64,000 nucleotides of DNA from Dictyostelium discoideum (GCA_000004695.1 CM000154.2:4960001-5024000), one strand, 5' to 3'; positions 3 through 55,014 are shown, counted from the stretch's first letter. Made by a program: numbers and translations. The notes: generated by a model from the letters alone, not told the origin.

Positions 3-3000
3 CAAAAACCAATTAGATTTCAAGATTATCAATTCACAGCAACCAAAGATGAAGCATATGGTAGATCGGATAGATATGTAAAACAATTTTTAAATAAAAA
101 TTTATTAAAGAAAAAGGATGGAACATTGGGAACTGCTGAAGAGCTATTAACATTGATTCAACAATCCAATATAAATGTTGTGACAGCATCAACGGGTGGA
201 GCAGCAATGGGTGCAATGTTAAATCATACCGTATCAACCATTAATCTAACTGGTAGTGGTAGTGTACCAACCTATAATCCATCAGATAATAGAAATAGTG
301 GATCACATGTAATAACAAGTACAAATAGTGTAATTAGTAATTCAAGTATAAGTAGTACTGGTGTAATAAATAATAATATAAATAATAATAGTAATATAAA
401 TAGTAATACAGGAACGACGACAACAACAATATCATTACCAAATAATACAGAAATAAAAACAGCATTAGTTTCAACTGGTAGTCAAAATGCATCCGATACA
501 GCACAGATTGATATAGAATTTCATTTATCGTATACACAATTGGTGACATTACCACCAAGTATATTTAGTTTAATTTGGATTCAAAAGTTGGTATTGACTC
601 ATCATAATATAAAAACATTGAGTGAAGATATTGGAAAGTTACAACAACTTCAAGTGTTGGTATTGGAGAATAATAGATTGATCAATTTACCTCAATCAAT
701 TGGTGACTTGGTAAATTTGAAGAGATTAGAAGTCGATAACAATCATTTGGTATCACTATGTTCATTGGAGCGATTGTCAAAACTTGAAGTCCTCTCTGTA
801 AATAATAATAAATTAACCCTATTGCCAACTTCTATCGCTTCCCTCTCTAGTTTGAAAACTTTAAATATTAAATCAAATCCAATCATTACACCACCATCAA
901 CTGTTGTCTCTAAAGGTTTAAAAGATATTGTATCATTTCTTCGTGAATTAGAAACTGGTGCTAGACCATGTTTAAGATCAAAATTGGTAGTTTTAGGTGA
1001 TCGTAAGTGTTTTTTCGTAAAAATAAATATTAATTTAAATCAAATGATAATTGATAATATATTAATATATGTATTTTTTAATAAAAAAAGCTGGAGTTGG
1101 TAAAACATCAGTTGTACAATGTATGAAAGGTAAAAAGAAAAAAACAAATGTAACAAGTAGTAGTATAAATATTGGTGGATCAAGTGGATCAGAAGTTGGA
1201 ATTGAAATTGATCAATATGATTTTGATGTTGTATTTGATGAAGATGATAAAAAGAGAAGAGTGATAACCTTATCAACATGGGATATCGCTAATCAAGATG
1301 TTTACTTTGCAAGTAGTCAATTGTTTGATTCAGAGAGATCAGTGTATATAGTGGTATTCAATTTGAACAATGATGATTTCTCTGCCATAGAATATTGGTT
1401 ACATTGTATCATGAGTACATCACCAAATTCACCGATTGTATTGGTGGGTACACATATTGATGCATTTGAAAATTTAAATGTTGTCAATGCGGTATTGGAG
1501 AGTGTTGCCTCGAGATTTCAAAAGAGATTCACAAATATTCAAGCCATCATCTCGGTTTCATGTACCACCGGTTACGATGTCGACAAGTTACGTCAACTCA
1601 TTGAGGACATCATAAAGACTCAACCTTATCTCAAAGAGAAAGTCCCAAGTAGTTTCTTTACACTCGAGGAGGCATTGATCGAGGTGAAAAAGAAAAGAAT
1701 TCCACCAGTGATGATGTGGCAAGAATATATCAACCTAGCAAACATTTGTAATCTTAAAGACTCTGTTCAAATTCAACGTGCCACGGAATTCCTTCACAAT
1801 ATTGGCTCCATCGTTTATTTCAATGATTTAAATTCATCAACTGTTGGTAAAATGGTGATTTTGGATCAACAATGGATCATCAATTGTATGTCCTCTTTAA
1901 TCACCTCAAAGTTACTCATAAACAATTGTAATGGTATCGTTAGACAATCCGATTTGGAATTGGTTTGGAAAGCTCCAACTTATCCTGAACATCTTCATCC
2001 AGCTTTACTCTCTATCATGCAAGCATTTGAAATTTGTCGTTCATTATCACCATCGGATCTTGTACGTCCAGAGGAGGTCAATGAAAAAGAGGTCATGGGT
2101 GATCGTAATTTAGTACCAAATCTATTATCTGACAATACAAACATTGTAGCTCAATGGGATGATTTCATCGATCCTGATACAATCTTATTGAATAGACAAT
2201 ATCATTTACCATTTTTACCAGAGAAATTCTTTGGAAAGTTAATCATTCATCTTATGAATTTTACTAAAGTTGAAAGTTGTCAAAAACGTGCCGTTATCTT
2301 AAGAAATCAAGATAATCATGAAGCTTTAATTGAATTGAAAACAATTAAAGATAATAAAGATGGTACTTTTAAAAAGATTCTAACTGTTGATGTTCGTGGT
2401 CTAGTTTCACCAGTTAGTTTATTACGTATTGTAACTGATACAATTGAATCTTTATTTTCACAATGGTACAAATTAGATATTAAAAGGTAAAAATTTAATT
2501 AATTAAAAATAATAATTTTTTTTATTTAATTATTAACATTTTTTTTTTTTTATTTTTTTAATATAGATATATAAGTTGTTATGAATGTGCAATTTTATAT
2601 GATAGAAATCCAACATTATTTACAATTGAAGAATGTGAACTTGCAGTAATTGATGGTAAAACAGTTTTAACATGTAATCAAAAGAGTGATTCAGATAGAG
2701 TTTCAACATCACATAGATTGAAATTGGATATATTGGCACCAGATATTTCAATGGTAGATATACCAATACCAAGATTTAATTTAAGCGAAGTAAAGATCAA
2801 TAAAGAGGTTGGTCGTGGTGCATTTGGTATTGTTTATGAAGCGGAATGGATGAGTGAATGGATAGCATTGAAAAAGTTATTATTACCTTCATCAACCGAT
2901 ACAACCAATCTCAATGGTAATGGCGAAGTTATGGTCTACGATGATCCAGATCAATTGATTGAAGATCGTTTACGTGTATTTAGAGAGTTTAGACATGAGG

Positions 3001-6000
3001 TTTACTATATGAGTGGACTCAATCATCCAAATGTTATGAAAATCAGCGGTTTTTGTATTCAACCTTTATGTATGGCATTAGAGTATGTTCGTTATGGTTC
3101 ATTGTATAGTTTACTCTCAAATTCAAGTATAGAAATTAGTTGGGGACTACGTTTACAAATTGCTAGTGAAATCGCCAAAGGTATGCAACATCTTCATTCT
3201 CATAATCCACCCGTCATTCATAGAGATCTAAAGAGTCCAAATATACTCTTGAATGGTATTACCGAGGGTCAAAACTCAGTGGCCACAATCATTGATTTCG
3301 GTACAAGTACTGCTTTGTATGGTGGTGCCGCTTTAATTCGTTGTGTTGATCAACCACTTTGGTTGGGTCCAGAGGTTTTGGCAGGCACTGCCTATAGTGA
3401 ACCATCAGATGTTTACTCTTTTGGTATCATACTTTGGGAATTGTATACACGTGCTCATCCATTTGATGAGTTTCAATTTGGTCAATGGATGAGTAAATTG
3501 GAAGATGAAATCATTAGAGGTTTACGTCCAACTATTCCACCAACTTGTCCACCAGAATATGTAGAATTAATTCAATCATGTTGGACTCATGAACCAAATA
3601 GTCGTCCAACTTTTACAAGTATTGTCGAAATTTTAGGTCAAATTAAAAAGAAATTTGCTCCTTTACCATTTACTCATCCACCACATATTAGAAATATGAT
3701 GAGAAAATCAAGATCTTCTTCAATTTCTGAAGCAATGTTACCTTCAAATTTATTACATTTAAATTTAAATGGTATTAATAATAATAATAATAATAGCAAT
3801 AATAATAATAATAGCATACCAGTTACAACTATAAGTTTAACATCAAGTGGTACATCACCAACAAATTCACCAGTTGGTGGATTATTATCACAAAGTTTAA
3901 CTCAACCAATAACTTCAGGTGGTAGTACAAGTGGAATTTTATCAACATCAGTTAATAGAGATAATTCATCATTGGTATCAGCATCATCATTAGGTAATAA
4001 TACATCAACATCATCATTGGCTTCATTGGTATCAAATAATAGTGGTTTACATCATTCACCATCAGCTTCAGATGGATTAAATGATTATTATGGTGCGGAT
4101 AATAATAACAATAATAATGATAGTACAATGGATTTCTTCCAAGATATTTTCACAGAGGAAGAGAATGAACAACCTTATCCATTTGCAGATGATGATCAAC
4201 AAAAAGGTATACTCTTTGGTTTCGATGAAGAACAAACCAATCCAAGTGCATCATCCGTTAGTATTATCATTGCTGCAACGATGGCAAAAATGATTGAAAT
4301 GATGACTAAAGGTGAAAGTTCAGCTACATTAAAGAGTGAACATATCTCCACAAGAAGAAGATCAGATACAGCGGGTAAAAATGGTGTACCACCACATTGG
4401 AGAAATTCAGTTCCATTATCAACAAACTCCTCCACCACTTTGGATGAAACTTTTATCGATGATTTCATCTATGTTTATCGTTCATTCACAACACCAAGAA
4501 ATATTTTCAAATTATTGGTTCGTAGATTCTTTGGACCAAGACATACAGATAAAGTTGATACATTTACAATTAAGAAATTTGAACAAAAGAAAGCTGCAAT
4601 TCGTCAAGGTATTGCAGTTTTCTTAAGAAAATGGGTGGCCGATATTACAGAGTTGGAATTTAGACAAGAGGAGTTTTGGTTATATCATAATACCGTGGCT
4701 TTCACTAAACAATTCATTGCATCTGAATTCCCAACTATTGCAACTCAAATCTATGGTACATTAACAACCCATGAGGATGAAGTAAATTTAACCAATCAAA
4801 GATTCCTTCAAATTGCTTTTAGCGAAAGTGAAATTCAAATTGATCGTGCAATGTCTTCAATGCAATTAACAACACCAAAACCATTTAGAAGTCAAAAGAA
4901 TTTAGCGAATAGTTATAACTCTCAAAGTGGTGGCGGTGATTCTTCATTCTATTATCAACCATCATCAAATGATGTATCAAGAGTATTTTTAAATCTTGCA
5001 ACTGGTATGAGAGATCCATTATTAGGTATAACGGTTAAAGAAAAAAAATTCAAAAAAGATAAAGTTTCAACACTTTGTTGTAGTGGTTCAGAGATTATAG
5101 ATTGGATTACCAAATGTATGCCAATTAAAAGAGAAGAAGCATCCATTTTAGTTTTGGATATGTTGATGAAACAATTCTTTATTCAAATTTCAGATGATGG
5201 TATACCCATTTCAAATCAAAAAGGTACCAATCCAACCTTTTCAGATTCACCAACCTCATTCTATATGTTTTTAGAGGACGATCCAGAATTGATTGCTCGT
5301 CAATACACTTTCCTTGAATTGAAATATCTTCAAAATATTCATCCAAGAGAATTGTTGGGTTTCTCTGTTGGTTTGGTAATGCCAAATGAAAATGAAAAGG
5401 ATCCTGAGAAATGGAGACAATCAAATTTCCCACATATCTATGATTATTTTAGATGGTTCAATAAGATGACAATGTTAGTTAGTACAGAAATTTTAAGACA
5501 AAGAGATATTAAACAACGTGCTTCAATCATTGAAAAGTATATCTCTATCGCATTGGAGTATCTTAGTCTTTGGAATTTCAATGGTATCATGCAAGTATTA
5601 AGTTCACTCCATAGTGAACCAATTTCAAGACTCTCTGCAACTTGGGCAAAAGTTTCTCAGAGATCAATGGATTGTTTCTATGAACTCTCACGTCTTATGT
5701 TACCCGAATCCAATTATTTACCACTTCGTACGGCTTTAGCCTCACAAAAACCAAACACTATCATTCAAGCCTCACCACTCTATCCAAATATCTCCGCCTA
5801 TATGGTACATACCGTTTGTCCTACCATTCCATTCCTTGGGGCTTTAATAGCTGATCTCTCTCAAACTTGTACAGAGAATCCAACATTCATTAGTAGTGGC
5901 GGTGAAAAGATGATCAATATTCTTCGTGTTAAACGTCTCTCTAAAAAGATGAAAATGTTCAAAGAATACAAAGAGATGCCAACTCAATACCTTCCTGCAT

Positions 6001-8049
6001 TGACAACCATTCCACTCCAATACTATGAACATTATGTAAATGATTTGAAAGCATTGGATAGTTTACAAATTGATCGTCTATCTGATATCGAAAGAAAACT
6101 TGAAATCATCTGTGAAAAGAATGGCACAACCAATGATGACAAAGAGAAAGGTGATGAGAATGGTGGTGGTTTGACTAGTAGTAATTTCTTTGGTAATGGT
6201 TCCGATGAATTAACTGAACGTGATTGGACTATCCTCTTAACAAATGCTTCTGTCATCGCCTATAATCGTGGTGATGTCGTCATGGAAGAGAATGCTATAA
6301 ACACTCATCTCTATCGTATAAAGAGTGGTGCTATCTCTGTTGAAAAGAAAGATAAAGAAGGTATCAATTGTAAGGTCGCTACGATGTTTGCTCCAAAGAT
6401 GTTTGGTGAAATGTCTTTCCTTGGTAATAAAACAACTGCTCGTTTAACCGTTGATGAAGAATCTGATCTCTACGTTATGGATATTCCTTTCTTAAATAAT
6501 CTATTCAATGGTCATCCACGTTTAGGTGCTAAATTCTATAAGATTATGGCAAATCAATTGGCAATTAGATTAAAGAATTTACCATGGTCAAAACCAAAAA
6601 ATACAACTGGTGGTAGTAGTAGTAGTAATCAATCTGCTGGTCCAGATAATATTTTAGGTACAACTCCAACTGGTATTAGTAGTAGTGGCGGTGGTTTAAC
6701 TTCATTATTAAATCAAAACCTTTCATCCATTATGTCATTATCAAATAGTAATACACCACCAGCATCACCAAGAGTAATGACTACACCAACATTACCATCT
6801 CCACCAGCTCCATTACAATCTCCACCAACCAGTGGTATTAGTTCACCAACAACAACAACATCAACAACAACTGATCAACAAAAAATTAATAATACAATTT
6901 TCCAAAATGTACATCCAACAATTAATGTTCATCGTACATCTTCATCAGCAAATTTAGTTTCTCCACATGGACGTCCATCAAATTCAGGTTTCGGTCATTC
7001 AAGTGGTGGTGAAAGAACCATTAATAAAGATCCACATCAAAGAGATAGTGGTAGTATGGATAAACCAATTCTATCACTTGGAAGTGGTGGTACACCTCGT
7101 GGTGATGGTGCTCGTAGTGGATCCATTAGTTATTTAGGTCGTACTCAAACCTCAACTTCACCATTGAATGAAGGTTTAAGCGGAGGTCAACAACCAGTTA
7201 TGAAAAAGAATGATCAAGAGTTTTGTCAAAGATTTGCATTGGTCGATGAAATTGTCATTAAAGATTATCCATGTTCATTAAACCGTTCCGGTAGATTGTA
7301 TATCTCTCAACAACATGTTTGTTTCTACAGTAAATTCTTTGGTTATAAAACTAAAAAGGTAATTCCATTCAAAAATATTGACAAACTAATTTGTATCAAT
7401 GTCAATCAAATAGAACTCACTCGTCTTAAAAACACCGTACCAAGTAATTATCGTTTAACTTTCCAAACTGGCAAAGATCGTGAAGATGCTTTCAGTATGA
7501 TTCATATCCTTTGGGATTCATCAAAAGTCTCCAATTCCTCCTCTGATGAAATCAAAAATAAATTGGCTGCCGAAAGAAAGAAAGTCAATAATCTTACACT
7601 CAAAACTCGTTCCAATAAAAACAAAGGCGATGAACTCACCAAAGAGGATTGGGAATTAATCGGTTGTGAAGGTTCACGTTCCTCCACTTTCAAAAAGGAT
7701 GAAGTAATCATTCGTGAAGGTGAACGTATGCAAAAGATTTTCCAAATTGGTAAAGGTGTTTGTCGTATTGAAAAATCAGTACCTGTTGCTCCTGGCTCTT
7801 CTGAAATGAAAAAAGTTGTACTTGGAACAATGAAACAAGATGATACCTTTGGTGAAATCACTTACCTCTTAAATGGTGAAACCACTGCTGATGTCATTGC
7901 TGACACTGATCAAACCGAGGTTTATACAATCGAAGGTCAATTTGTAAATATTTTATTCGATTTAAATCCTGCTTTAGCTTCAAAATGGTTTAAATATTTA
8001 GCCACTGCTTTAAACAAAACTTTAATTGAAAGAGAATCACAACTTTATG

Positions 8050-8054
<5 letters not shown>
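3..8054 (+). CDS. gbpC: Roco-family cGMP-binding protein GbpC (LRR–Roc GTPase–COR–TKL kinase–RasGEF-N–DEP–RasGEF–cNB-A–GRAM–cNB-B), 5'-partial, 3 exons
   Basis: The frame is open from base 3 with no stop, so the first few codons lie upstream of the window. LRR repeats (LxxLxLxxNxL) occupy 540-900. Exon 1 ends at 1002 with donor GTAAGTG at 1003. Exon 2 runs 1091..2486; the splice restores the Roc P-loop GDPGVGKTS (c|ct codon). Donor GTAAAAA sits at 2487 and the acceptor is atatag at 2566. Exon 3 is 2567..8054: a protein-kinase domain (GRGAFGIVYEAEW...HRDLKSPNIL...DFG...PEV), a DEP-like segment, a RasGEF catalytic region, two cyclic-nucleotide-binding motifs (FGEMSFL...RLT and FGEITYL...ADTD) flanking a GRAM domain, then stop TAA at 8052-8054. 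The summed coding length of about 2627 aa matches the roughly 2631-aa GbpC known from the literature. Confidence 0.9.
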
Positions 8055-20831: not shown

Positions 20832-26090
<5,259 letters not shown>

Positions 26091-26944: not shown

Positions 26945-29900
26945 ATGATGATAAAACTTAAAACTATAATTCTCATTTTATTTTTATTTTTTTCTATTTT
27001 TATTAAAACATCTTTTACCCAGAGCCCTTTCGAAAGTAATTATTAAATAATAAATAAATAAATCAAAAAAATAAAAAAAAAAGTAAATAATAATCAAAGT
27101 ACACCTCTAACCATTGATATTATTATGTATTGTTTATTTTAAAATAATATCTTTTTTTTTTTTTTTTATAGTATATTGGGTAAGTCCTACTAAAGGTGTT
27201 GAAAGTATGGGATGTGGATTGGTTAAAGAATTTCCATGTAAAGATATTGGTTCTATAATTGATAAAATAACACCAAATGTATCAACGATTATTAATTTAA
27301 TGGAAGGTGTTTATAGAGGTAATTTTAGTTATTTAATGACAAATTTCGTTATATTATTTAAAGGTGAGGGTAGAGATAAAACAATAATAGATTTAGAAGG
27401 TAGACAAAGATTTACACTTTGTACAATTAGTGATATTCATTTCAAAGATCTTACAATTAAAAATGGTTTTGGTAATGCAATATCTGGAATTTTTGATGGT
27501 GGTGCTATCTATGCATACGATAGTCAAATTCATTTTGTAAACGTTGCATTAATCGATAACACTTGTAGTGCATCAGGTGGTGGTATATTTCTATACAATT
27601 GTATGTATTTTTAAAAAATATTATCATTATTAAATAGTTTATTAATTATAATGTATTAATAATTTGTTTGTTTGTTTTAAAAAAAAAGGTTATTTTAATG
27701 TTGAGCATAGTTTATTTCAAAATAATACAGCAAATAGTGGAGGTGGATTTATATTATTATTATCAGCTTCAAATATTACAAATTCAAGTTTTTTACATAA
27801 TAGAGTATTTCAAGAAGGTAAAGGTGGTGCAATTCAAGTTTTCATTTCATTTATGAGTATTGAACTTTCACTATTTGCTTATAATATTGCACCATATAGT
27901 GGTGCTATTGATATGGGTATGCTATAGGGATTATTATTATATTTAATATAAACATGTTTATTAATATGTATCTTTCTCTTTTTTTATTATTATTATTGTT
28001 AGTTGGTGGAAATTTAACATCAAAATATTCAAAATTTATAGAAAATCATTCAAATATTGGTGGTGGATTTGGACTTTATTTTATATCAAATGTAATATTT
28101 GAAAGTTGTGAATTCATTGGAAATAGAGCAAATAGTACAGGTGGATTATCATTTTTAACAGCTCAATCAATGTTAAGATTTTCATTATGTATTTTTAAAG
28201 ATAACTTTGCACCAAATTGTGGAATCGTTGAATCACATTCAATATCACCACTATTATTTGAATCATGTTCATTCACTGGTGATGTTCCAACAGCTGTTCA
28301 AATTGCACTATATGATAATTATTGTTTTTTAAAAGTTCAAAATTGTCATTTCTCTGAAATTCAAGGTGTTTTAATGTATGCTGATTCAATTTCAAATATT
28401 ATAATTGATTCTTCTTCATTTACAAGTAAATATTATTTTTATTATTAAAATTAATTATAAAAAACAATATATATATACATGTACTAATAATAATAATAAT
28501 AATAAATAAAAAGATGTTTCAAATAGAATTATTGATGTTGGTAATGAAGCAGATATATTAATTATATCAAGTACATTTTATAATATAACAATTGATGAAT
28601 ATTTAGTATCATTATCAAATGGTAATTTTTTAGCATATAATATGGATTTTAATAATAATATTGTATTGGCATTAATTAAATCAAGTGTTGGTGGATCGGT
28701 AACCATCGTTTCAAGTAGTATGTCAAATAATTATGTTTCAACAAGTTTAATTTCATTAAGTAATGGATATAGTGTTTATATTGAAAATTGTGAAGTTAAA
28801 AATAATACTGGCCTATTTAAAGGTTGTTTCATTGATACAGATCATACAGGTTCAGAAACGATAGTACAATCATTGTTTGAGAATAATAGATCACCATTTG
28901 GTCCAATTTTATATTTTTCAAATCCTGAAACCATGCTATCAACAAATTATTCATCAAATTTTAGAGATATTTTATTTTCAAATAATTTCGCAGCCTATTC
29001 TGGTGCATTGGTTTATTTTAGTCAAAATGTGTCATTACCAAATATAAGTTGTACAAATTGTATTTATGATAATAATACTGCAGTATTTGGTGAGTTGGTT
29101 AATAGTGCTTTCTACTCATTCAATGTTTCGATTACACCAGTGATTTACCCATTTCAAGATTTAATAATTGAAATATTTGCATTGGATTTCTTTGGTAATT
29201 TAGTTAGAGGTACTTCTGATTTAGGTTTTTTTGCAATTCCTTGTTCCGATGCTTATGTTGAAGGTAATTTATTTGCTGTATTAAATGAAAATGGTTCTGC
29301 AATATTTTCAAATATTAAATTATCTTCAAATCCAAATTCAATTTGTAATTTAACTTTTCTATCTGTACCAATTGTTTCTGAAAGTAAGTTATTTTATTTA
29401 TATAAATTAAAAAATAATAATAATAATATATCAATAATAATATACTAATATATATATATATTATAGATGGACCAATAACAATACCAATTACATTTTCTTA
29501 TTGTTCACAAGATAGAGAATTAGTTATGATTAAATCAATTTATTATTGTTTAAAAACTATTAAAGTAACATCATTTGTAAAATTTTTAGTTGGAACATTA
29601 GCAGCGATTCTATTGATAATTTTAATAATTTCAGGATTTATATCATTAAAATATAGGAAAAAAAGAGTTATTAGATATTCAAATCCATTATTTTTATGTA
29701 TTATTTTAGTTGGTTGTATTATATTTTTAATTACTATTCCAGTATTATTTGGATCAACTTCTGCAACTTGTAAAATTAGATTTCCAATCATTGTTATTGG
29801 TAGTTGTTTAGTAACTTCATCAGTATTTATTAAACAATTTAGAATTTGGAGATTAATTAAAGATATACAATTATTAAGAGAAACTAATGTTGAAAATAAA

Positions 29901-31639
29901 TATTTATTAAAATTTATTTCAATATTAATGGTTATACCAATTGTAAGTTATTTTATTTAAAACAATATTTATAATATTAATAATATTAATAATAATTAAA
30001 ATTAGATTATTGTAATTTGTAGTTTCTTTATATTTCCTACACATGAAAAGTATACATTTAATCAAAGAGATATAACTATAACACACTATTGTTCAGATGG
30101 ATCTTATTTAGCTTATGTTATTATATTCTTAGTTTATCAAGTAAGTTCAATATATTTTTAAAAAAAAGAAATACATATCAAATATTAATTATTATTTTTT
30201 TTTTTTTGAAAATTTAATAGATGGCTATTTTACTTTTTGGTTGTTATTTAGTTATAGTTTGTAGAAAATTTAGATCAATTCCTGGTACTTTTAATGAAGC
30301 AACCTATATTGGTATTTTAGTAAGTAACAATAATAACCAAAAAAAAAAAAAAAAAAAAATTAATTATTTTATTTCTAATCAAATAAAAAAAAAAAAGATT
30401 TATAACTATACAGTTGTTTTAATTGTTGCTATACCATTGGCATATGTATTTAATAAGAATCCATTAGCAAATTTTTTAATATTTTCAATATCAATTATAG
30501 TATTTGTTTTAAGTACTATAATTTTATTATTTATACCGAAATTTCATTTCTTATTAAGAAAGAAAGTAATTATATCATCACTTGAAAAACTAATTAAAGA
30601 ACAAGAAGCAATTGTACAAAGAAATAAAGATATTCTTTATTTTTATGATATGTATTTAGCTGAAGAAAGAACTGGTATTCAACAACAACAACGACAAGGA
30701 AATTTATATAATAATAATAGCCTTGGTAGAAGTATTTCAAGTAACACTAGAAAAAGGTCAAATAATAATATTAATAATAATAATAATAATAACAGTTTCA
30801 ATATGACGGGTTTTTCAGATTCCAGTTCAACAATTTCTAATCCAAATTTAACATCATTTACTTCATCCCCCTCTTCATTGAATAGTAGTAGTGATTCAGA
30901 TTCAACACCTGATTTTAATGATCCAAATTTTTTGGAATATTATAATGAAAGAGTCAAAAATTATGGAAAAAGAAAATCAATTGAAAAAAATAAAATTAAT
31001 AATAGTATTCCAAATTCACCAAAATCAACAACATCATTGCCAACATCATTACCATCATCTTCTTCTTCTTCTTCTTCTTCTTCTTCTTCTTCTTCTTCTT
31101 CTTCTTCTTCTTCTTCTTCATCATCATCAATCACGCCAAAATCAAATACACCAATACTATCTCCATCTTCTCAATCATCAAAAACAATTAATAAAGGTGG
31201 TAGTGGTAGTGGTAATAGTAGTAGTATTCCAAATTATCAAAATATAAAATCACCAAATACTCCAAAGAGTAATAAATCTTCACCAAATTTATCAATTCCA
31301 GTAAATAAAAATAGTAAAGTTAGTAAATTATCAAGCAATCAAATATCATCACCAAAATCAATTAAATCTGATAAATCACCAATTACAATTAAAGATTTTG
31401 ATAATTCAAGTGATTTAAGTGATTCAAGTAATAGTTTAAAGAGTGATAGTAGCATAGGTTCAGAACAATTCAATGAAAAGGTCATAAATAGAATATTTAA
31501 TATACATCAAGATAAAAAAGTTAAAACAACAAAACAACAATCTGATAGTACTTTATCAAGTATTGGTAGTGATAGTTCTCCAAATTTTAATGAAAATATT
31601 AATAATCCAAATATTAATCCAAATAATAATAATAATCCA

Positions 31640-31697
<58 letters not shown>

Positions 31698-31939
31698 TTA
31701 ATAATAATAATAATAATGCAAATAATAATAATAGTGACACTGATGATTCATCACCAAATTTTAATGAAAATATTGAAAAAAAGAATGTTGTTAAAACAAA
31801 AACAAACTTTTTAAATCAATTTCATCAAAAGAAACAAAAAGATAGTGATAATAGAAAAAATTATAATATATCACCAATTAATATTTCTGATGAAAAGGTA
31901 CCACCATTATCTCCAATTAATTTATCAAAAAGAAAATAA
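26945..31939 (+). CDS. family C (GABAB/metabotropic-glutamate-like) 7TM receptor with N-terminal Pmp-type parallel beta-helix ectodomain and Ser/Asn-rich cytoplasmic tail, 9 exons
   Basis: The exon chain was built by phase: 26945..27035 (signal peptide MMIKLKTIILILFLFFSIFIKTSFTQSPFE), 27172..27600, 27689..27916, 28003..28425, 28514..29383, 29467..29942, 30006..30140, 30221..30319 and 30398..31939. All donors are GTAAGT/GTATGT/GTAAAT-type and all acceptors are AG after T-rich tracts; the phases are consistent. The ectodomain carries repeated GGA[IV]/GGGF and FxxN motifs (GGAIYAYDS…FVNV, GGGFILL…, GGAIQVF…FAYN, NIGGGFGLYFISNVIFESCEF). Seven TM helices follow, with family-C signatures (FNEATYIG in TM6, PKFHFLL in TM7). 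Confidence 0.8.
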
Positions 31940-53420: not shown

Positions 53421-55014
53421 ATCTTTTATCATTAATATCAAAATGATATTAATTAAATAATGATATTGAAATTGAAAAAATAAATAAATTTAAATAAAAT
53501 TTAAATTAAAATAATAATAATAATAAATAAATAAAAGAATGTAAAAATTATGATATTTGATGATGATAAAAATAACAACAATAATAAATAAAATTTAAAT
53601 TCATTTTTGAACGAAGAAAGTGTTTTTTTTTTTTTTTTTTTTTTTAATGAGAGTTTTTTTTTTTTTTTAGAAATACTATGTGATATGTGGTTAGATACAT
53701 TGTCAAAAATTGAAGGAGTTATTATTATTATTATTATTTTTATTATTATTTTTTTTTTTATTTATTTTTATTTTTATTTTTATTTTTATTATTATTATTT
53801 TTATTTTTTTTATTTTTATTTTTTTTTTTTATTAATAATATAATTGATCGACATAAATGATAATAACAAACTCTTTTTTTAAATTATTGGATATTCATTC
53901 AAAAGTGTGATGTGGTGGTAAGTTGTGTTTTTTGGAATGTGTGAGAGAGAGATATAGAGTGGGTGTGGTTCTATCATAATTAATATTTGTATAAAAACAA
54001 AATAATTTGCAAAAAAATAATGCGGGCGAATAACTATTATATTATTAAAAAAATAATAAATAATTTTAATAAATAAATAAATAAATAAATTGATAATTGA
54101 TAAATAAACCCACCACACATAAGAAAGATATATTAACCTTTAATGAATGAGATATTAATTTTCACGCATGTTTATAATTAATTTTTTTTTTTTTTATTTT
54201 TTTATTTTTTTTTTTGGTGTTTAAAAAAAGAAAGAAATAAAAAATAAAAATAAAAAGAAAATACCAATTTAATTATTTAATACAATTATGTCGACACTAC
54301 ATGTTGATGCAAATTGAGTGTATAATTTGTAAAAAAAAAAAAAAAAATAATAAAAAAATATAAAAAAAGAAACAAAACCTCAATTGGTGATATCACTTGA
54401 AAATATATAGTTTATAAATAGATATATTATTATTACTATTATTATTATTATTATTATTTCTACTATTATTATTTTTTATTATTTTTTATATTAATATATT
54501 TATAGACAATATACATATTTTATTTTTTTTTTATTTTATTTTTTAATTTATTTATATAAAAATGAAAAAAAAAAAAAAATAAAAAAAAATAAAAAAAAAT
54601 ATTATTATAACAAATATTGTTAAAATTGTTAATAATTTATATAATTTTTGTTCTTATTGTCAATTTTTATCATCACCCAAAGTATTTTGAATAGATATAA
54701 TTATTTTATTTTATTATAATTTATTTATTTGTTTGTTTTTGTTTTTTTTTTTTTTTTTTACGAGGCGAAAATAAAATTTATCAAATCCCATATGATATAC
54801 AAAAAGTTTCTAAAAAAGGGTTTTTTTTATTTTTAGTTTTACCTTTTTAATACAAATTATTTCTTAAAATAAAAAATTGAAAAAAAAATTGAAAAAAAAA
54901 TTGCTATTATTACTATTATTATTTTATTATTATTTTCGCTATTATTATTTTTATTATTATTTTTATTTTTTTTTTAATTTTTTTAATTAATTAATTAATG
55001 TAAATGATTTTTGT

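Follow-up and report, generated by a model that had tools for sequence, protein, structure and literature searches.

Can the membrane core of a class C G-protein-coupled receptor (GPCR) work with an ectodomain that is not a Venus flytrap? This question is raised by a gene on the + strand, at 26945..31939, of a 64,000-nucleotide stretch of DNA (the window) that is strongly AT-rich (15-35% GC) and has homopolymer tracts and short AT-rich introns, as is typical of dictyostelids. The predicted product starts with a long parallel beta-helix and continues into a seven-transmembrane (7TM) domain of the class C, or family 3, type. We found that both parts belong to one protein, most likely the receptor GrlP of Dictyostelium discoideum or the direct orthologue of GrlP in a closely related amoeba, and we used its orthologues, domain profiles and predicted structures to consider how such a receptor might signal.

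One gene encodes both the beta-helix and the 7TM domain

Joining the nine exons proposed by the initial annotation generated a single 4293-nt open reading frame (ORF) that encodes 1430 amino acids (aa) plus a stop codon and has 0 internal stops. All 8 of the introns have GT..AG ends, and alignment of the spliced protein was gap-free at each exon junction against two full-length orthologues, those of Polysphondylium violaceum (P0001; 57% identity) and Tieghemostelium lacteum (P0002; 49% identity over 97% of the query). Together these observations confirm the proposed junctions.

Exon 1 (26945..27035), which opens with the ATG at 26945, ends before a GT donor after 27035 and encodes aa 1-30, includes a predicted signal peptide (aa 1-23) with a hydropathy peak of 2.42 at aa 2-20; an equivalent hydrophobic leader is found at the N-terminus of the orthologues, in agreement with the signal peptide that had been proposed. 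Exon 2 (27172..27600; bounded by AG and GT, phase 1) encodes an N-terminal cap (aa 31-67), whose Cys45 and Cys53 are invariant across three orthologues, and the first beta-helix rungs, and aligned gaplessly at its junction at aa 173. Further rungs are encoded by exon 3 (27689..27916; aa 174-249) and by exon 4 (28003..28425; aa 250-390), the latter being the best-conserved portion of the ectodomain. The junction between these two exons is straddled by AIDM|VGGNL, with the same letters in the P. violaceum protein. Exon 5 (28514..29383) encodes the final rungs (to aa ~588) and the start of a beta-sandwich stalk (aa 590-680), and exon 6 (29467..29942) the end of the stalk and TM1-TM4. The remainder of the membrane domain is divided among exon 7 (30006..30140), with the beta-hairpin of extracellular loop 2 (ECL2), including Cys868, and TM5; exon 8 (30221..30319), with intracellular loop 3 and the start of TM6 with its FNEATYIG motif; and exon 9 (30398..31939), with the remainder of TM6, TM7 with PKFHF, a post-TM7 helix, a low-complexity tail and the stop codon.

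Because the helix and the membrane core lie on opposite sides of intron 5, we weighed the explanation that two adjacent genes, one for a secreted beta-helix protein and one for a separate 7TM protein, had been merged in error. Reading through intron 5 does reach a stop codon at 29448 (ORF 28642..29448), and such an ORF would end a secreted helix protein. The T. lacteum orthologue, however, is a single uninterrupted 3555-nt ORF (LODT01000022.1; L003 10001..13555) that encodes signal peptide, helix and 7TM; it has 0 introns, compared with 8 in the window gene, and the fusion of helix and 7TM is therefore independent of any splicing call. About 20 independently annotated proteins also align in a single stretch across both halves. 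Moreover, intron 5 cuts the beta-sandwich at aa 680, so that neither half of the gene alone would encode a complete fold, and the 83-nt gap between the helix exons and the 7TM exons (29384..29466) has GT..AG ends and keeps the frame. We therefore rejected two separate genes, an explanation that we regard as effectively refuted, and conclude that helix and 7TM are one protein from one gene, as the initial annotation had it. A transcript that retained intron 5 would encode a secreted beta-helix with a partial stalk and without the 7TM domain.

The ectodomain is a Pmp-type repeat beta-helix

The region at aa ~68-588 (27282..29106 including introns, + strand) is predicted to form a right-handed parallel beta-helix of roughly 20 rungs. 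Pfam Beta_helix (PF13229) matched it in three stretches, one of them covering aa 251-352, with E=2.4e-10 and 40.7 bits against a cutoff of 25.9. To examine the fold, we used AlphaFold2 models of two sequences. The full-length model is that of the T. lacteum orthologue, built on a 28-sequence family alignment; its mean predicted local distance difference test score (pLDDT) is 79, rising to >90 across the helix (residues ~100-650), and it shows regular three-strand rungs at residues 92-612. The second model is of the window's own exon 5 translation (window 28516-29382, 289 aa; mean pLDDT 93.3, predicted template-modelling score 0.87) and consists of three-strand helix rungs followed by sandwich strands. 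In Foldseek comparisons with solved structures the top matches of the exon 5 model were all beta-helix proteins, at weak scores (E>=7.5e-4); the full T. lacteum model gave matches to the 7TM only. The fold claimed at the outset is thus borne out by the profile match and the confident models, while its length shrinks from the claimed ~750 aa to about 520. No Venus-flytrap or periplasmic-binding domain (ANF_receptor, BMP) was matched by Pfam on the ectodomain at E<=10.

The rungs carry alternating GGx and FxxN motifs spaced ~25-27 aa apart, most clearly over aa 140-320. In exon 2 these include GGAI at aa 140 and GGGI at aa 166, and in exon 3 GGGF at aa 191, GGAI at aa 219 and SGAI at aa 244, each of the three followed by an FxxN. 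The repeat resembles, in degenerate form, the alternating GGA(I/L/V) and FxxN tetrapeptides of the polymorphic membrane proteins (Pmps) of Chlamydia: canonical GGAI occurs only 2 times and the relaxed GGx 10 times, with 14 FxxN. These 14 compare with 5.6+-2.2 in shuffled sequences and were reached in 2 of 2000 shuffles; GGx-then-FxxN pairs number 10 against 0.36 expected, a count reached in 0 of 2000. The protein also has 19 N-glycosylation sequons (N-X-S/T) within aa 1-712, which would fit an extracellular location for that part.

A likeness to chlamydial Pmps had been part of the initial annotation, and it stands for the repeat type, which like that of Pmps forms a three-sided parallel beta-helix. 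Membership in the Pmp family proper was rejected. Among the domain families named for this protein, 7tm_3 and Beta_helix were matched, and Chlam_PMP (PF02415) was not, even at E<=10; TIGR01376 (POMP_repeat) scored 12.9 bits against a cutoff of 15, and Pfam found neither a PMP_M middle domain nor an autotransporter beta-barrel in the window protein. Where Pmps have that barrel, the C-terminal half of the window protein is the 7TM, so that it differs from them in being anchored by a eukaryotic membrane domain. Its distant homologues are overwhelmingly PF02415-bearing repeat proteins from bacteria, methanogens and some eukaryotes. PF02415 occurs beyond Chlamydia, and its GGA/FxxN residues point into the helix core, where they have a structural role (PMC11166332). 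By these sequence comparisons the ectodomain is a Pmp-type repeat beta-helix and the protein is not a Pmp family member. Pmp-type beta-helix repeats also occur with protein kinase domains, in P0123 from Planoprotostelium fungivorum, which has a GPS motif in addition, and in P0010; it thus seems that in Amoebozoa receptor kinases, like GPCRs, can bear this ectodomain.

The right-handed parallel beta-helix is a pectin-lyase-like fold, and the helix might be a polysaccharide lyase, hydrolase or epimerase that is anchored by, and perhaps regulated through, the 7TM. No enzyme family was significant by sequence (Pectinesterase reached E=0.13, at the N-terminal cap), the invariant ectodomain residues form no catalytic constellation, and comparison by sequence led to repeat proteins of the Pmp type and not to carbohydrate-active enzymes. 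We rejected this candidate for want of sequence support and consider it very improbable.

A beta-sandwich stalk links the helix to the membrane core

The initial annotation joined the helix directly to the 7TM. We found instead a beta-sandwich stalk of ~120 aa between them (aa ~590-712, 29110..29561, + strand), which spans intron 5 and ends with Cys693 and Cys708 just before TM1. Its strands lie at residues 614-736 of the T. lacteum model and 199-284 of the exon 5 model, and both cysteines (C717 and C732 by P0002 numbering) hardly vary among the 28 family members. The stalk is an addition of this study, being absent from the GrlP-family papers cited below.

The 7TM core is a class C domain

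The membrane domain (aa 714-965, 29565..30541 including introns, + strand) matched Pfam 7tm_3 at positions 3-251 of the 251-position profile, with E=3.9e-39 and 135.3 bits against a cutoff of 33.5. Seven hydropathy peaks fall within aa 721-963, those of TM1-TM4 at 721-739, 755-773, 784-802 and 830-848, and seven membrane helices are present in the T. lacteum model, whose 7TM matches solved class C receptors. By sequence, the closest relative of solved structure is human GABA-B2 (E=1.6e-17), to which FIKQFRIW, FNEATYIG and IPKFHF align at FAKTWRV, LNDSKYIG and VPKLIT, respectively. The class C switch motifs are intact, namely the TM3 Lys (FxKxxR), FNEA at TM6 and PKF in TM7. Cys782 and Cys868, the TM3-ECL2 cysteines, correspond to near-invariant family columns (C806 and C892 in P0002 numbering), and ECL2 forms a beta-hairpin in the T. 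lacteum model (E877-892). The family-C assignment made initially is thus secure, both by profile and by the aligned TM6 and TM7 motifs.

The GABA-B subunits GB1 and GB2 resemble the window protein in the TM3 Lys, in xNExxYIG at TM6 and PKx at TM7, all of which align, and in having no cysteine-rich (NCD3G) domain. They differ in the ligand domain, which in the window protein is a rigid beta-helix and beta-sandwich rather than a Venus flytrap; a mechanism of clamshell closure therefore cannot apply to it. Other class C receptors with a non-flytrap exterior are GPR158 and GPR179, which have a Cache ectodomain, and GPR156 and GPRC5, which have none. These are structural matches of the 7TM, and the window protein is distinguished from them by an ectodomain that is a beta-helix, far larger and rod-like.

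After TM7 comes a predicted helix, SSLEKLIKEQEAIVQRNKDILYFYDMYL (aa 966-1005, 30542..30661, + strand), at the place where GABA-B has its coiled coil. It is near-identical in three orthologues and partly conserved across the family, and in the T. lacteum model TM7 and the following helix are continuous to residue 1027. Hydrophobic residues recur at heptad spacing (Leu982, Ile989, Ile996 and Tyr1003), and by analogy with the GABA-B coiled coil the segment may aid dimerisation. The rest of the protein is a disordered, Ser/Asn-rich low-complexity tail (aa 1006-1430, + strand) with a pLDDT of ~30 in the T. lacteum model. Within it, a regular-expression scan for [ST]P[DN][FL]N found three copies preceded by acidic and Ser residues, TPDFN at 30905..30919 and SPNFN at 31577..31591 and 31751..31765. 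The P. violaceum orthologue has 4 copies, the T. lacteum orthologue 1, and other family members none (0 of 26). This motif may be a docking or sorting signal conserved specifically in the GrlP lineage.

The gene is most likely grlP

The D. discoideum genome encodes 17 Grl receptors, most with a BMP domain and with GrlE, N, P, Q and R as the exceptions; of these, three (GrlP, GrlQ and GrlR) combine the lack of a BMP domain with N-termini homologous to Chlamydia Pmp (Prabhu et al. 2007, PMC1885808). The window protein shares with GrlP a signal peptide, a long N-terminus with Pmp-type repeats, the lack of BMP and a class C 7TM. Its 1430 aa compare with 1407 aa published for GrlP, and the difference of 23 aa may reflect the lengths of repeat tracts, a revised gene model, or another strain or species. 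The orthologues of T. lacteum and Heterostelium album are annotated as 'G-protein-coupled receptor family 3 protein 15', and 'protein 17' is the name of a more distant protein from Cavenderia; by the A-H, J-R lettering of the receptors, 15 stands for GrlP and 17 for GrlR. A 2023 survey counted GrlP as one of three Grls that are kept as single orthologues across Dictyostelia, and reported no recognised domain in the ectodomains of the clades without BMP (PMC10445921).

Gene order offers a further comparison. In both the window and T. lacteum, a GbpC-like gene on the + strand lies upstream and a homeodomain and ankyrin gene on the - strand downstream, with differing genes between these conserved flanks. 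In D. discoideum, gbpC and warA are presumably near each other, an arrangement that would fit the neighbours seen in the window. From these features of sequence and order, we take the window gene to be, most likely, grlP itself or the direct grlP orthologue of a closely related amoeba. Comparison with the grl family therefore places the architecture among what was already known: the joining of helix and 7TM has been published for GrlP/Q/R since 2006-2007 and appears in social-amoeba database annotations, and it is not a discovery of the present analysis.

The helix-7TM fusion extends beyond named dictyostelids

A profile-free, exhaustive sequence search with the T. lacteum orthologue (E<=1e-3) identified 14,680 relatives. 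Most consist of the helix only, and ~25 cluster representatives span helix and 7TM. Among 28 cluster representatives, 7tm_3 was matched in all 28, Beta_helix in 11 and Chlam_PMP in 10, so that PF02415 is passed by 10 of 28 relatives of the same architecture. The named helix-7TM relatives come from five other dictyostelid genera (Acytostelium, Polysphondylium, Tieghemostelium, Heterostelium and Cavenderia), and several more proteins with Chlam_PMP and 7tm_3 come from metagenome and read-archive assemblies. In Capsaspora and Pigoraptor the matches cover no more than the 7TM and the stretch that immediately precedes it. A profile search with the 28 sequences identified no further receptor, Pmp-type repeat proteins of bacteria and archaea making up the bulk of its matches.

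One environmental example is P0158, an intronless 819-aa protein with Chlam_PMP and 7tm_3, encoded at L001 10001..12460 on contig Ga0633744_000616 (61.9 kb, JGI metagenome 3300073660). The contig has ~49% GC and dense short ORFs, and the nine ORFs neighbouring P0158 had no Pfam or PHROG match; it may belong to an intron-poor protist or a giant virus, among other hosts. The fusion thus exists outside the named dictyostelid genomes.

This distribution bears on whether the ectodomain senses anything at all. The 7TM might be constitutively active, with the helix acting only as spacer, as part of the glycocalyx or as a module for trafficking and stability. GPR156 is a class C receptor that has no ectodomain and is constitutively active, and it is not obvious what closing motion a rigid helix could pass on to the 7TM. 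Across dictyostelid genera, however, the whole length of the ectodomain is conserved, at 49-57% identity in orthologues and with long identical stretches, and at least 25 divergent clusters retain its fusion to 7tm_3. Such conservation and persistent fusion argue for a selected, specific function, and a ligand-independent receptor seems to us distinctly improbable.

Genomic neighbourhood

Signalling and trafficking genes surround the receptor gene. The upstream GbpC-like gene (126..8054, + strand) encodes an LRR-Roc-COR-kinase-RasGEF-DEP-GRAM-cNMP protein, and a PI3-kinase with a PH domain (20832..26090, - strand) is divergent from the receptor gene. Immediately downstream and convergent is a gene for a Sec1-family protein (32025..33587, - strand), followed by those for a RasGAP and VPS9 protein (40155..45896, - strand) and for the homeodomain and ankyrin, or Wariai-like, protein (50016..51854, - strand). 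Further genes of the window encode a saposin, a protein with a Tubulin_3 domain, a P450 and a protein with DUF4211; searches of the window for tRNAs and Rfam elements found none. Its strongest GC skew (+0.586) is at 53001..54000, where GC is ~17%, and the wider 52-55 kb region has 12-17% GC and no ORF of >=150 aa.

A proposed model for ligand sensing

Class C receptors signal as dimers, in which the ectodomains re-orient both 7TM bundles through a stalk that touches ECL2. In solved beta-helix proteins, the flank of the helix is where extended ligands are bound, polysaccharides in most cases and protein surfaces in some, and to our knowledge none of these proteins undergoes large closing motions. 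As a beta-helix cannot close like a Venus flytrap, the signal would most likely be relayed by re-orienting or cross-linking two protomers. We lean, on balance and without strong conviction, towards the following model of a GrlP-type family 3 GPCR in which a long, rigid, glycosylated beta-helix takes the place of the BMP sensor. The protein would reside in the plasma membrane with the helix outside, as its 19 sequons suggest. The flank of the helix would bind an extended or polymeric ligand, either a polysaccharide or a protein surface, as in solved beta-helix proteins, and this ligand would cross-link or re-orient the two helix-stalk rods of a class C dimer. The Cys-bearing sandwich stalk and the ECL2 hairpin would then pass the signal to the GABA-B-like 7TM and on to heterotrimeric G proteins.

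Expression data suggest when such a ligand might be present. All Grl transcripts are detectable at every stage, and those of GrlP increase from the tight-aggregate stage on (PMC1885808). This rise suggests a ligand of the multicellular stage, such as a polysaccharide of the sheath or matrix or a cell-surface component, rather than prey. The initial annotation had pointed to a surface glycan or a component of bacterial prey, and the prey part found no support. If the helix did recognise a bacterial surface glycan, it could drive chemotaxis or phagocytosis during feeding: phage tailspikes and capsule depolymerases, which bind bacterial polysaccharides, are among the structural matches, GrlL/Far1, another Grl, mediates folate chemotaxis (PMC10445921), and GrlP transcripts are among those detectable at all stages. 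They increase, however, only once feeding is over (PMC1885808), and a microarray study of growth on bacteria highlighted grlB and grlJ with no mention of GrlP (PMC2443395). We therefore hold a prey sensor to be improbable.

A different use of the same surface would be adhesion. The helix might mediate cell-cell or cell-substrate adhesion, or self-association, in the manner of Pmps or the pneumococcal adhesin PfbA, with the 7TM reporting adhesion or tension rather than the binding of a diffusible or polymeric ligand. The proteins nearest to the ectodomain in sequence are surface proteins with Pmp repeats, many of which have been named adhesin-like; two reports describe Pmps as binding to host cells and assembling into homo- and hetero-oligomers (PMC2997323, PMC8326573); and GrlP expression goes up as cells become adherent aggregates (PMC1885808). 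Against this, Pfam searches found no GPS/GAIN autoproteolysis site or other adhesion-GPCR hallmark, and the GGA/FxxN motifs are buried and structural rather than adhesive (PMC11166332). An adhesion-type receptor, which overlaps with the polymeric-ligand explanation, is in our view a possible but rather unlikely account. Ranked by our estimates, adhesion comes before prey sensing, which is followed by a ligand-independent receptor and, last, by a tethered enzyme.

Several points weigh against the polymeric-ligand model and the identity on which it builds. The assignment to grlP rests on architecture, the 'protein 15' names, synteny and similar length (1430 versus 1407 aa), and the matches of the homologue searches included no protein of the genus Dictyostelium. 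The full-length model is of an orthologue with 49% identity, exon 5 being the part modelled from the window itself, and the match of that model to solved structures in Foldseek is weak (best E=7.5e-4, template-modelling score <=0.33). The ectodomain residues that are invariant family-wide, Asn488, Gly520, Asn548 and Asp615 (window numbering), either occupy ladder or turn positions or belong to the stalk; being Asn, Gly and Asp of a structural type, they point to no binding site. In the searchable literature we found no functional study, phenotype or mechanism for GrlP/Q/R, including any test of ligand, localisation, G-protein coupling or dimerisation.

To what was published on GrlP/Q/R, the present analysis adds, besides the stalk, a gene model that has been validated, an orthologue without introns whose neighbourhood is conserved, confident fold assignments and the occurrence of the fusion beyond named dictyostelids. 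More tentatively, GrlP-type receptors in general could be sensors of glycans or matrix, whose flank would bind a sheath or cellulose-associated polymer or a microbial glycan, with a multivalent ligand cross-linking or re-orienting the two rods; we put this forward as a speculative extension. If true, it would mean a flytrap-free mode of activation for class C GPCRs, and the presence of the fusion on environmental contigs would suggest that this mode may be widespread in uncultured protists. A rigid beta-helix sensor cannot use the clamshell that defines the class, and would show how separable activation of the class C 7TM is from the Venus flytrap. Signalling by GrlP would, in turn, reveal which polymeric cues amoebae sense through G proteins.

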